From positions 2,432,001-2,496,000 of the forward strand of contig OZ242195.1 in the NCBI GenBank assembly GCA_965205975.1: a stretch of DNA of 64,000 nucleotides, in the 5' to 3' direction. The stretch is from Candidatus Latescibacterota bacterium. GTDB lineage: Bacteria > Latescibacterota > UBA2968. Positions within the stretch are counted from its first letter, which is position 1, and each line of letters begins with the position of its first letter. The notes beneath the pieces are model-generated. The model was not told the DNA's origin and did not search any database. It saw only the letters and a program-made list of their open reading frames with translations. Shown here in pieces: positions 38,135 through 41,379 of the stretch. Both the position numbers and the translations under genes were made by a program.

Positions 38135-38704
38135 ATGTTCAACTGGCTAAAAAAAATATTCGCCCCTCCTATCGAACACCTGCCGCAACTCGAAATGTTT
38201 CGCGATCACCTCAACAACCTGCCCAAAATTCAGCAAATTACTGGTTATGCCACGCGCACCTATCGTTCGGGTGACGAAGCCGCCTGGTGTCGCATCATGG
38301 AAGGCAATGTGGGCAGCAACTGGACAACGGAGAAATGCCGAGCGCAATTAACCAGCGACCCCCGATTCCAGGCTGAAAACCTCTTTTTCATCACCCACAA
38401 CGACGACCCCATAGCCAGCGCGTGTGCCTGGAAAACACCCGCCCAATCGCCGGAAACAGGCGAAGTCCACATGGTCGCCGCACATGCAGACCACCGCGGC
38501 AAAGGACTCGGACATTTGCTCAACGCCCTCGTCCTCCATCGCTTAAAAGATCTGGGCTATCGAAAAGCACATCTCAAAACCGATGACTGGCGCATACCGG
38601 CCATCAAATCCTATCTCGACGCGGGCTTCCACCCCCTCAACACCCACGAAAGCCACCCCGAACGTTGGGAAGCCATCTTCGCCCAGCTAAAAATAAAAAA
38701 ATAA
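38135..38704 (+). CDS. GNAT-family N-acetyltransferase
   Basis: VHMVAAHADHRGKGLG acetyl-CoA motif; AIKSYLDAGF. Confidence 0.88.
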   Translation: MFNWLKKIFAPPIEHLPQLEMFRDHLNNLPKIQQITGYATRTYRSGDEAAWCRIMEGNVGSNWTTEKCRAQLTSDPRFQAENLFFITHNDDPIASACAWKTPAQSPETGEVHMVAAHADHRGKGLGHLLNALVLHRLKDLGYRKAHLKTDDWRIPAIKSYLDAGFHPLNTHESHPERWEAIFAQLKIKK

Positions 38705-38709
38705 CCTCC

Positions 38710-39456
38710 TCACCCCATCAACGCCTTATACCCCATCCCCATCACCTCCTTGACGTATTCCAGCGTGCGTTGTCCTTCAATACGCGCTTTCGAACCGCCC
38801 AAATTCAAAATATTGCGCACCAAATCGGGCTGTTCTTCAAAACCCTTGCGACGTATCCGAAACGGCGTCATAATTTTACTCTGACCGTCCGTATCCTTCA
38901 AGCGCGTGCCATAAACGCCATCGGGAATGGGAAACACCTCGCCATAAATCCGATTAAATCGCGCAGCCACTTCCTGTGCCAATTCAATATGGGGTCTTTG
39001 ATCTGGTCCCACCGGCACATATCGCGGACGAAAAAGCAAAATATCCGCCGCCTGAGACACCGGATATCCCACAAACCCGTAAGGCACCCGATTCCCCAAC
39101 CCCATCTTACCCATCTCTTCCTTAACGGTTGGATTCCGCAACAAACGCGGCAACGTCACCAAATTGGAAAAAATCATAGTTAACTCTGCCAATTGCGGCA
39201 CCTGTGATTGCAAAAAACAAACGCTTTTTTCGGGATCAAATCCCGCCGCCAGATAATCCAGCACCATTTCTCTGACGTGACACTCCAGGTCCTCTGTCCG
39301 ATCCCGGTGCGTCGTCAGCGCCTGATAATCGGCAATCATAAAAAAACACTGAAACTCATCCTGCATCTCAAACCGATTCTTCAACGACCCGACATAATGC
39401 CCCAAATGCATTCTACCCGTCGGGCGGTCCCCTGTTAAAACAATTGTGCGACTCAT
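38710..39456 (-). CDS. trpS: Tryptophanyl-tRNA synthetase paralog with in-frame internal deletion (possible pseudogene)
   Basis: TGDRPTG, HLGH (HIGH motif), YPVSQAADIL, VPVGPDQ. Only 248 aa; KMSKS and most of the anticodon-binding domain are absent. Confidence 0.85.
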   Translation of the reverse strand: MSRTIVLTGDRPTGRMHLGHYVGSLKNRFEMQDEFQCFFMIADYQALTTHRDRTEDLECHVREMVLDYLAAGFDPEKSVCFLQSQVPQLAELTMIFSNLVTLPRLLRNPTVKEEMGKMGLGNRVPYGFVGYPVSQAADILLFRPRYVPVGPDQRPHIELAQEVAARFNRIYGEVFPIPDGVYGTRLKDTDGQSKIMTPFRIRRKGFEEQPDLVRNILNLGGSKARIEGQRTLEYVKEVMGMGYKALMG

Positions 39457-39478
39457 CTCTATTCCTTTCTTTGAACTA

Positions 39479-39646
39479 TTAAAAATCCATAATTTGCAAA
39501 AAAAAACGCGCCACCTTCCGATAGCGCGCGGTGCAAGCAAACAAAGATCGCCAGATATCCGGTGGTGGACATACATCTCCCATTGCGCCTGTCCACCACC
39601 AGCGTCCGCCAATATTAAACAGCTCTGTCATCGCATTCAAAAACAT
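39479..39646 (-). CDS. Trp-rich leader peptide 2 (proximal attenuator)
   Basis: MFLNAMTELFNIGGRWWWTG...; alternative ATG at 39631. The WWW codons (39593-39601) lie in an 11-bp stem arm. Confidence 0.65.
   Translation of the reverse strand: MFLNAMTELFNIGGRWWWTGAMGDVCPPPDIWRSLFACTARYRKVARFFLQIMDF
39498..39528 (-). terminator. Attenuator terminator 2 upstream of trpS
   Basis: CGCGCTATC-GGAA-GGTGGCGCG followed by T9. Confidence 0.8.
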
Positions 39647-39660
39647 CGCATACTGTCCAT

Positions 39661-39692
39661 AAAAAAAACCGCCGTCAAAAGCCGACGGCGGT
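39661..39692 (-). terminator. Attenuator terminator 1 upstream of trpS
   Basis: ACCGCCGTCGG-CTT-TTGACGGCGGT followed by T8. Confidence 0.85.
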
Positions 39693-39723
39693 CAATTCAG
39701 AATTCTCAAATAAATACAATCCG

Positions 39724-39834
39724 TCAGCAAATCCACACAGCAACACACCACCAACCACGGACGGTTTCAGACACACGGGGAGCCAGCACCCTATCGGGCG
39801 TCGCATCAGTCAAAGTGTGATCGTGCATAATCAT
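39724..39834 (-). CDS. Trp-rich leader peptide 1 (distal attenuator)
   Basis: SD GGGAG; MIMHDHTLTDATPDRVLAPRVSETVRGWWCVAVWIC* (36 aa) ending just before terminator 1. Confidence 0.75.
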   Translation of the reverse strand: MIMHDHTLTDATPDRVLAPRVSETVRGWWCVAVWIC

Positions 39835-39862
39835 AACAAACTCCCGTGATATACCGCCGAAG

Positions 39863-39891
39863 AAAATAACGACTTCAACCCCCCAAGTCAA
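39863..39891 (-). promoter_or_regulatory. Putative sigma70 promoter of the trp leader/trpS transcript
   Basis: TTGACT-17 nt-TATTTT upstream of leader 1. Confidence 0.55.
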
Positions 39892-39906
39892 GTCGTTTGA
39901 TTTTCT

Positions 39907-41379
39907 TTAACTCACGAACCGGAACGAGTAGAGCTTTGCCGACCGCATCACGACGCGAAGCCGCAGCGGTCCTCGATCCGTGGGGATCCGGCGGCCGGCC
40001 CCCTGCCACGACACGCCTGCCTTGATTGCATTGGCGACAATCGTCTCGCACGTCTTCAGCGTGTAGCCTTCCACGGGGCGCCCCTCTTCGTCCTGCAGTT
40101 CGACCAGCAACCAGCCGCCCCCGCCACAATCCACATTCAACTCGAGCACCTGACCGTCGAACGCCAGCGGCGGAGTCACAAACTCTCCGCCAGAAAGAGA
40201 CGCATCCGCCGAGACAAAACCGTCCCGCCTCAGGATCGCCCGGAACAGCCCGGTATTCCAACCTTCGCGCACCTCATCATTGTGCCGACTTCCCCTCCCC
40301 GAATAGTAGATCCACATCTCGGTCTCGGTAAGCACGGGCCAGACATTGGCCATCACCATACCACCCGATGGTCCTCCATCCAGCCCCCGGCGGATGAACG
40401 GCTCCCGGTCTCCCTGACGCGACCATATGATCCCATCACGGCTCGTGAGGAGCCGGACATCCATCGTGGCCGGGAAATCGGACGCTTCCCAGTGGTAATA
40501 AGCGGCGGGCATCATAAAGTACGCATCATCCGCCTCGGGATGCTTATAGACTGCGTTCGTGTAGTAATCGACCTGCGGCCTATCCATTGACCGGGGAGGT
40601 AGAGGGGCTTCCAGGTCCAGCGCATCTCCCTCCAGGACGATCAGCGTGGGCTGCGACCAGGTCTTAAAGTCGGGCGACGTGATCCGGCCAACGGACCGGT
40701 ACCGCTTTCCGAGCTTCATTTCCGCCGCCTCGTCCCGTCGCTGGGTCTCGTGTACCCGCGTATAGCCGACGTAGAGATCCAGGCTGTCATCCCAGAAGAA
40801 GACATTCTGGGTGTCGCACATCTGGTTGGGCGGATTCGGCTGGCCCTCATCATACGTCCAATGGATCCCGTCGGGTGAATGCATGGCCCAGAGACCCGGC
40901 AGAACACCGGCCTCGATCTCATCATCCCTGGGATAGTACTTCGACCAGAGCCGGTAACGCGAATCGGCGGGTGCGCGTTCGTCTATATAAACCGTCGCGC
41001 CCTGCATGCTCTGACGCTCATCCAGCGGGACGACGATGTTGTTCGCCGTGCTACCCCGGAACGGGACGAGGTGCATCTCCGGCTTCTGCCAGGAGACCCC
41101 GTCTTCAGATTCCGCATAGCAGAGACGGACCGCCCCTTCCTGCGGACCGCCCGATTTCATCTGTGCGCCGTACCAGAGTCGGAAGTGCCGATCCCCTTCC
41201 CGGATCACCGTGTTGTATCCCCCAATCCCAAGCCTCTCCCACGGCTTGTCTGCCCGGAGCACCGGCTCGGGGGACTGCAAAGGCGGATTCATACGGAGAT
41301 TGACACCAGAGACCCGATCGAAGAAACGCGCGTCGATGAAAAGCTGTTTCCGGTTCCCAACCTGGACTGTATTGGACAT
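39907..41379 (-). CDS. Putative five-bladed beta-propeller glycoside-hydrolase-like protein
   Basis: QLFID start, repeated S.DG..W (Asp-box-like) motifs, LRRDGFVS, C-terminal beta-sandwich; visibly GC-richer than its neighbours. Confidence 0.7.
   Translation of the reverse strand: MSNTVQVGNRKQLFIDARFFDRVSGVNLRMNPPLQSPEPVLRADKPWERLGIGGYNTVIREGDRHFRLWYGAQMKSGGPQEGAVRLCYAESEDGVSWQKPEMHLVPFRGSTANNIVVPLDERQSMQGATVYIDERAPADSRYRLWSKYYPRDDEIEAGVLPGLWAMHSPDGIHWTYDEGQPNPPNQMCDTQNVFFWDDSLDLYVGYTRVHETQRRDEAAEMKLGKRYRSVGRITSPDFKTWSQPTLIVLEGDALDLEAPLPPRSMDRPQVDYYTNAVYKHPEADDAYFMMPAAYYHWEASDFPATMDVRLLTSRDGIIWSRQGDREPFIRRGLDGGPSGGMVMANVWPVLTETEMWIYYSGRGSRHNDEVREGWNTGLFRAILRRDGFVSADASLSGGEFVTPPLAFDGQVLELNVDCGGGGWLLVELQDEEGRPVEGYTLKTCETIVANAIKAGVSWQGAGRRIPTDRGPLRLRVVMRSAKLYSFRFVS

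Follow-up and report, generated by a model that had tools for sequence, protein, structure and literature searches.

The auxiliary tryptophanyl-tRNA synthetase gene studied here, trpS2, lies within a 64,000-nt stretch of Latescibacterota DNA (the window) and is preceded by two Trp-codon attenuators arranged in series under a single promoter, which is probably a conserved, new arrangement of a classical principle. The promoter, leader 1, terminator 1, leader 2, terminator 2 and trpS were all located on the minus strand (Table 1), as an earlier note on this DNA had described them. From the layout of these elements, expression of trpS2 is likely restricted to conditions in which charged tRNA-Trp is scarce, and a tighter response arising from the series arrangement is plausible. 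The two leaders, which are of unrelated sequence, would constitute a two-gate ribosome-mediated attenuator through which RNA polymerase passes only when ribosomes stall at Trp codons. In unit 1 a ribosome at the stop codon would cover segment 2, and terminator 1 would form; a ribosome stalled at the Trp-Trp pair would leave segment 2 free to capture the 5' arm of the terminator. In unit 2 untranslated RNA would adopt the strong Trp:Pro protector, leading to termination, while a stall at the three Trp codons would open the protector and let the CCACCACCGG strand pair into the upper part of terminator 2. Once past these codons, the ribosome would cover the CCACCACCGG strand, probably pausing at Pro-Pro-Pro, and terminator 2 would again form. 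Overall read-through would approximate to the product of both gates, resulting in less leak and a sharper response.

Table 1. Features of the trpS2 control region and its target gene (window coordinates)
Feature	Position	Strand	Remarks
Sigma-70-type promoter, TTGACT-17 nt-TATTTT	39863..39891	-	Sequence; TTGAC-17-TAnnnT in 43/46 unit-1 homologues
Leader 1 SD, GGGAG	39845-39841	-	Duplex -6.9 kcal/mol
Leader peptide 1, 36 aa, ...RGWWCVAVWIC	39724..39834	-	ATG 39834, TGA 39724
CCGTC, candidate protector strand for segment 2	39760..39764	-	Marginal in source genus
Leader 1 control codons, WW	39753-39748	-	
Unit 1 segment 2, GCTGACGG	39721..39728	-	Pairs with 39688-39681 to form antiterminator 1; leader 1 TGA inside
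CCGTCGGC, terminator 1 5' arm, partner of GCTGACGG	39688-39681	-	
Intrinsic terminator 1 and T tract	39660..39693 (hairpin 39693-39667)	-	Covariation
Leader peptide 2, 55 aa, GGRWWWTG	39479..39646	-	ATG 39646, TAA 39479; frame passes terminator 2
Leader 2 codon runs	WWW 39601-39593; PPP 39568-39560	-	
Unit 2 protector hairpin, 13 bp, Trp codons : Pro codons	39559..39602	-	-24.1 kcal/mol
Intrinsic terminator 2 and T tract	39498..39529 (hairpin 39529-39506)	-	-16.9 kcal/mol; covariation
Auxiliary trpS (trpS2, TrpRS-II-like), 248 aa	38710..39456	-	ATG 39456; in-frame loss of 84 codons at 38873/38872

Terminator 1 is followed after approximately 15 nt by the ATG of leader 2, and no promoter-like site was found between the two units. 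Rfam covariance models gave six matches at E<=10 in positions 38500-41000, all below the gathering score and none to the Trp leader (RF00513) or to a T-box. When the full-length RNA was folded at equilibrium the terminators won in almost all cases, and the switch must therefore be kinetic. Contigs from RNA runs cover the locus (X19 spans leader 1 and bridges both terminators, and in X15 leader 1 is deeper than trpS); they count as no evidence, however, because contigs show neither ends nor levels and lack a silent-stretch control. The upstream gene (39907-41379, minus strand), which encodes 490 aa and has no Pfam or NCBIfam match, ends 16 nt before the -35 box, and as no terminator-like site was found there its transcription may continue into unit 1. 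Pairing is also predicted between the SD of leader 1 and CTCCCC in the same leader (39782-39774), which could limit repeated initiation.

Unit 1 contains several elements of a classical attenuator, namely a mutually exclusive antiterminator, an intrinsic terminator and a stop codon placed so that a ribosome halted there would sit over segment 2. In its 46 homologues the promoter spacer is exactly 17 nt in 43, and leader 1 invariably carries at least two Trp codons within 3-4 codons. The third Trp is not a control codon; the leader stops at or just before it in three genomes (G002, G005 and G012). The earlier note had pointed to covariation in related genomes as a check on its structures, and terminator 1, antiterminator 1 and terminator 2 do all covary. 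In terminator 1, 97.5% of cells are paired and six of the nine pairs change on both sides. The alternative pairing of GCTGACGG with the 5' arm of this terminator, which the note had also proposed, is borne out by changes on both sides in four of eight pairs (0/500 shuffles on cells) and by 86% paired cells, compared with at most 62.5% when the strands are slid, although the two covariation signals overlap because both structures use the same 5' arm. The antiterminator 1 duplex (-14.4 kcal/mol) was matched by only six of 1000 shuffles, a test that is weak for G028 (58/1000) and G036 (104/1000). Across 15 representatives native duplexes averaged -15.0 kcal/mol against -11.9 for cross-clade combinations, with the caveat that in four of the 15 between three and four cross-clade duplexes equalled the native one.

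Folding of the nascent RNA places the 5' arm of terminator 1 in a sequestered state with a probability of 0.73 when the ribosome is stalled on Trp, compared with 0.02 when it is at the stop codon. The second partner that the earlier note assigned to GCTGACGG, the CCGTC just before the Trp codons, fared less well: both strands are present, but the CCGTC:GACGG protector is marginal here (probability 0.43, then 0.23, then 0.01 on growing RNA prefixes) and is absent in G001, G011, G017 and G018, while G028, G054 and the sister family f2 have a strong classical protector. Since the protector is marginal in the source genome, naked RNA also favours antiterminator 1 (0.73), and in the folding model control by unit 1 would depend on a ribosome reaching the stop codon inside segment 2. 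At one locus upstream of the housekeeping gene trpS1 (L085, genome G047) leader 1 has been deleted and the -35 box almost directly precedes the terminator.

Unit 2 also consists of a short leader ORF with an SD and adjacent Trp codons. The ATG of leader 2 is positioned 15 codons before the first Trp in 21/21 genomes of the genus. Two further statements of the earlier note were confirmed, that leader 2 has a weak SD (-3.0 kcal/mol here, a value equalled or bettered by 65% of 2609 long ORFs) and that its frame runs through terminator 2, as it does in 32 of 35 homologues, a stop codon preceding the end of the terminator in G031, G044 and G048. The SD is stronger, at -5.9 to -9.9 kcal/mol, in G001, G011, G017, G018, G023, G024, G025 and G028. 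Five of the 12 pairs of terminator 2 change on both sides. With respect to the alternative structures postulated for this unit, the 13-bp protector is strong, while the antiterminator is well paired across homologues (91.6%) but weak in the source genome, at only -7.5 kcal/mol against the -16.9 kcal/mol of terminator 2. Two of its 11 pairs change on both sides, pair 55-91 being the sole well-populated compensatory pair (13 A-U, 11 G-C); in the protector no covariation was seen in the homologue alignment because the Trp codons are fixed. The predicted probability of antiterminator 2 on a Trp stall is 0.14-0.16 here. A probability of at least 0.3 was obtained in 12/36 homologues with a stalled ribosome and in 1/36 without one, with values below 0.3 in 24/36.

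These figures could be taken to mean that only unit 1 senses Trp in the source genome (G000), unit 2 having decayed to a mostly constitutive terminator that damps an unneeded synthetase gene. Such an explanation, which we consider improbable, draws on the weak SD and antiterminator (P 0.16), on a substitution in the terminator arm that is unique to G000 among the 26 aligned sequences, and on the deletion within the target gene. It does not sit easily with the retention of the ATG position, the open frame and the WW(W) codons in 21/21 genomes of the genus, in those with deleted and full-length trpS2 alike, or with G002, in which an equally weak SD precedes a full-length trpS2.

Unit 2 departs from the classical scheme in having no stop codon ahead of its terminator at which a ribosome would be held over segment 2; three Pro codons stand there instead. 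As a coupled ribosome would block terminator 2, classical logic needs a ribosome held on segment 2, and the in-frame Pro-Pro-Pro is a candidate for this role in place of the leader stop, although a doubtful one. The motif is in frame in 35/35 homologues, which were pattern-selected, and lies 39 nt before terminator 2 here; it is broken in three divergent homologues (G023, G050 and G051). It is also the reverse complement of the Trp codons. Conservation of its frame was rejected as proof of a pause, the interval from the Trp codons to Pro-Pro-Pro being free of any indel. In E. coli, termination at an intrinsic terminator increases when ribosomes stall at polyproline ahead of it, close coupling of the ribosome prevents intrinsic terminator hairpins from forming, and an insert of six Pro codons changes output less than 2-fold when EF-P is present (PMC5021804). 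EF-P is encoded in the source genome, which counts against the pause. A small extra hairpin is found around the Pro codons (alignment A2 columns 40-44 with 51-55; window 39571-39556), in which one pair covaries (13 U-A, 11 C-G); it is in competition with antiterminator 2 and may represent a pause or intermediate.

The same coupling effect, together with the passage of the leader 2 frame across terminator 2 in most homologues, would fit a mechanism of the E. coli pyrBI type, in which the ribosome itself blocks the terminator and unit 2 responds to Pro or EF-P, or with a sign opposite to that of unit 1. We regard this as highly improbable. The conserved strand that is complementary both to the Trp codons and to the terminator top, with its one covarying pair, is the classical layout; the frame beyond Pro-Pro-Pro is not conserved, as it contains non-triplet indels, and in G031, G044 and G048 it closes before terminator 2 ends. 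Within the attenuator interpretation, unit 2 bears on whether a Pro-Pro-Pro pause can replace a leader stop codon.

To explore the distribution of the two units, 132 genomes of the class were scanned with one covariance model per unit, derived from 27 sequences for unit 1 and from 26 for unit 2. The unit 1 model gave 46 strong matches (E<=5.1e-10; next 5.7e-6) and the unit 2 model 41 (E<=2.5e-8; next 1.5e-6), one per genome in each case, with 27 and 26 of the matched rows, respectively, being training sequences; all these matches were at a trpS. Both units occur in 38 genomes and form a direct tandem, with a gap of 47-273 nt, in 24 of the 38 and thus in 24/132 of the class, comprising all 21 members of the genus, G024, G028 and, from another order, G054. 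In 12 of the 38, all from family f2, trpS1 sits between the units, and in two a small gene does so (DUF2087 in G023, a tautomerase in G025). Unit 1 is found alone, before trpS1, in eight genomes, and unit 2 alone in three (G021, G026 and G029). These counts ignore kinship; related genomes are not independent and represent only a handful of lineages. A metagenome relative of G054 (L177) also contains the tandem, each leader having one Trp codon fewer. No tandem was evident in the 450 nt upstream of 25 more distant trpS loci (of 33 outside the class), but the tandem may occur elsewhere, as the two scans of the wider collection relied on a single protein and on short patterns. In two Methylomirabilota loci (L125 and L131) a single WWW leader lies approximately 150 nt before trpS, and two hairpins with a T tract come after it. 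At five loci (L005, L010, L015, L018 and L021) the stretch from terminator 1 to leader 2 accommodates repeat-like insertions of some 60-220 nt.

Unit 1 is directly upstream of housekeeping trpS1 in 20 f2 genomes, which raises the question of whether it still serves trpS2. It might have been left behind by trpS1 and be retained chiefly for the promoter it supplies, or for a terminated RNA or peptide that acts in trans, while exerting little control over trpS2. The genomes in which unit 2 stands alone and the two in which small genes separate the units are in keeping with this proposal, and trans-acting attenuator RNA has a precedent in rnTrpL/peTrpL of Sinorhizobium (PMC6614838, PMC7968998). 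Nevertheless, the pairing between antiterminator and terminator of unit 1 covaries within the tandem lineages too (G000, G024, G028 and G054), and transcripts from the unit 1 promoter must cross terminator 1 to reach trpS2, so we judge a mere leftover to be very unlikely. The earlier note had named, as an outcome contrary to its reading, that unit 1 belonged to a gene since deleted. As a statement on origin this proved to be partly right, as the f2 genomes show, but it does not extend to present function because promoter, SD, Trp-Trp codons, antiterminator and terminator are kept in the 24 direct-tandem genomes (the promoter was not found in three).

The position of trpS1 between the units in 12 f2 genomes suggests that the ancestral operon was probably promoter-unit 1-trpS1-unit 2-trpS2, and that the tandem arose when trpS1 moved out. 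HNH and scpA are adjacent without an intervening trpS in 4/4 f2 genomes tested and in G054, and the position of trpS1 in the source family therefore looks derived. A DCC1-like gene and a Gfo/Idh/MocA gene, both neighbours of the locus in the window, are likewise found ahead of unit 1-trpS1 in G042 and G052, as judged by inspection of N-termini. The reverse order of events, an old tandem into which trpS1 was inserted in f2, is a less simple account but may also apply, as the trpS2 tree is weak, support for the placement of G054 being 70-71%. Duplication of one unit into two was unsupported, the best match between unit 1 and unit 2 being 13-17 nt long and, by inspection, at the Trp codons. In either case, units 1 and 2 have remained together in genera that share 66-81% identity in trpS2. 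The natural layouts (a gene between the units, a direct tandem, either unit alone) show how such logic can evolve, and the series provides ready-made material for asking whether gates multiply. At three loci (L069, L089 and L090, in G036, G031 and G045) unit 2 persists downstream of trpS1, in degenerate form in G045, and trpS2 was not detected there. In family f3 (L168-L170 and L172) a canonical-type trpS directly follows a trpC-like gene in a trp cluster, based on inspection of ORF N-termini.

The tandem shares with E. coli trpL (Rfam Trp_leader RF00513) a short leader ORF, adjacent Trp codons and an antiterminator that competes with an intrinsic terminator, the trpL mechanism being as outlined in PMC3641672. 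It differs from trpL in comprising two units, in lacking an Rfam match, in its marginal unit 1 protector and in having no stop codon in leader 2 before the terminator. The anti-TRAP operon of Bacillus subtilis reportedly combines a T-box with a leader peptide, a finding attributed to Chen and Yanofsky in 2003. Tandem T-boxes are described as controlling trp operons of Bacillota (PMC12452182). Those systems resemble the locus described here in sensing uncharged tRNA-Trp twice within a single leader, although T-boxes bind the tRNA directly, whereas both units here rely on codons read by the ribosome and have no T-box match. A Trp attenuator of an auxiliary trpS in Streptomyces is said to have been described by Vecchione and Sello in 2010. 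A single Trp attenuator has also been predicted for trpS2 of S. avermitilis (PMC1262725). In Streptomyces, as here, the gene for a second tryptophanyl-tRNA synthetase would be governed by a leader with Trp codons, but there the attenuator is single and the enzyme intact, in contrast with two units and an enzyme that is deleted in 11/21 genomes of the genus. At a site which we take to be linked to indolmycin resistance, His in TrpS1 (ADLH) is replaced by Gln in the trpS2 protein (ADYQ).

The author of the earlier note knew of no tandem peptide-leader example, and in this respect it has to be corrected. The mgtCBR leader of Salmonella likewise contains two short ORFs (mgtM and mgtP), each with a stem-loop switch, but these ORF-based attenuators respond to different signals (ATP and proline) and involve no intrinsic terminators (PMC3641672). 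The tandem studied here, with Trp codons and intrinsic terminators in both units, is not of that type. No case of two serial Trp leader-peptide attenuators with intrinsic terminators was found in the open-access literature searched. For riboswitches and T-boxes, tandem control by one and the same signal is established, and a version based on Trp leader peptides would be a new arrangement.

The target of this control was identified correctly as a trpS, but the earlier note overlooked that it is an auxiliary paralogue with an internal deletion. The source genome has two trpS genes, of which the housekeeping trpS1 (355 aa) has no leader and belongs to an HNH-trpS-scpA-scpB operon. In the genus trpS2 encodes 330-332 aa in 10/21 genomes; the 252-nt (84-codon) in-frame deletion of the source genome is common to nine of the 21, and other deletions in G011 and G018 bring the deleted forms to 11/21. 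With the deletion, little of the KMSKS-type motif is left after DGQSK and the anticodon-binding domain, with its four conserved Cys, is gone, while the HIGH motif is retained as HLGH. The 248-aa product is thus predicted to be unable to charge tRNA. An assembly artefact was rejected, as the same junction occurs in 9/21 genomes of the genus and in runs of three studies. It was found in 4/4 non-RNA runs (as a joint in X1, X5 and X8, as loose ends in X2) and in 1/4 RNA runs, and X1 and X8, the latter labelled a sponge metagenome, contain both deleted and full-length trpS2. The best solved relatives of full-length trpS2 are Deinococcus radiodurans TrpRS II (PDB 2a4m, 1yi8) and Thermotoga TrpRS (2g36), with E values of 2e-88 and 8e-81, and its Cys 237/258/265/268 align with the Fe4S4-binding domain of the Thermotoga enzyme (PMC4027196); the protein encoded in the window differs from these relatives in lacking the Cys domain and most of the KMSKS motif.

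The pN/pS ratio of deleted trpS2 (0.117, 95% 0.075-0.169; nine copies) equals that of full-length copies (0.111, 0.065-0.167; eight copies), and a simple pseudogene is therefore disfavoured. It should be stressed, however, that carriers of the deletion are scattered on the trpS2 and trpS1 trees and no flanking site fully tracks it, so recombination may make part of the divergence predate the deletion. With this caveat, the deleted gene, although predicted to be catalytically dead, appears to be still under purifying selection, and it is likely kept for a job other than tRNA charging. At least six distinct deletion junctions were recognized, and in a search of 1.84 billion representatives further deleted forms of trpS2 ranked top; a search of the open-access literature gave no report of a truncated TrpRS like the short form. 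Six f2 copies are strongly eroded, and in most of them the HIGH motif is changed or gone; in these six, constraint is higher on residues 69-95 (0.088) and on the C-terminal helix (0.25) than on the remaining sequence (0.57), with synonymous sites free to vary. A TrpRS that has been truncated more than once but is still selected, behind a double Trp switch, suggests a non-catalytic role for a synthetase paralogue.

The short TrpS2 is predicted to fold as a TrpRS core (pLDDT 81, pTM 0.79). A model of its complex with TrpS1 scored 0.84 against 0.00 for the best of three controls, a mark reached by 116/157 solved complexes and 2/215 mismatched pairs, with at least 94% of contacts agreeing between runs and a partner pLDDT of 82. 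TrpRS homodimers have been solved structurally, and the model may therefore have passed through likeness rather than binding. The idea that the dimer interface accounts for what is conserved in the degenerate copies was only partly upheld: the predicted interface includes residues 84-105 and 122-134, yet residues 96-128 are among the least conserved stretches, and the conserved C-terminal helix 212-238 lies, at least mostly, outside it. A bolder scheme, which we think unlikely, is that a same-signal two-gate attenuator, with a polyproline pause for a stop, releases a dead TrpRS pseudoenzyme only under deep Trp starvation, for example to pair with the housekeeping TrpRS. As anticodon recognition in TrpRS falls to the partner subunit, such a dimer would throttle charging of tRNA-Trp. 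If true, throttled charging would feed back positively on all Trp attenuators in the cell, and selection would repeatedly have trimmed trpS2 toward the pseudoenzyme form. Heterodimers of duplicated synthetases have a precedent in the ThrRS of Anabaena (PMC4787780).

The trp operon of the source genome uses the same kind of switch. Outside the window, downstream of G000:C1:2741847 (minus strand), the trp/aro operon has a leader of 33 aa with many Phe, Trp and Tyr codons, after which comes a terminator.
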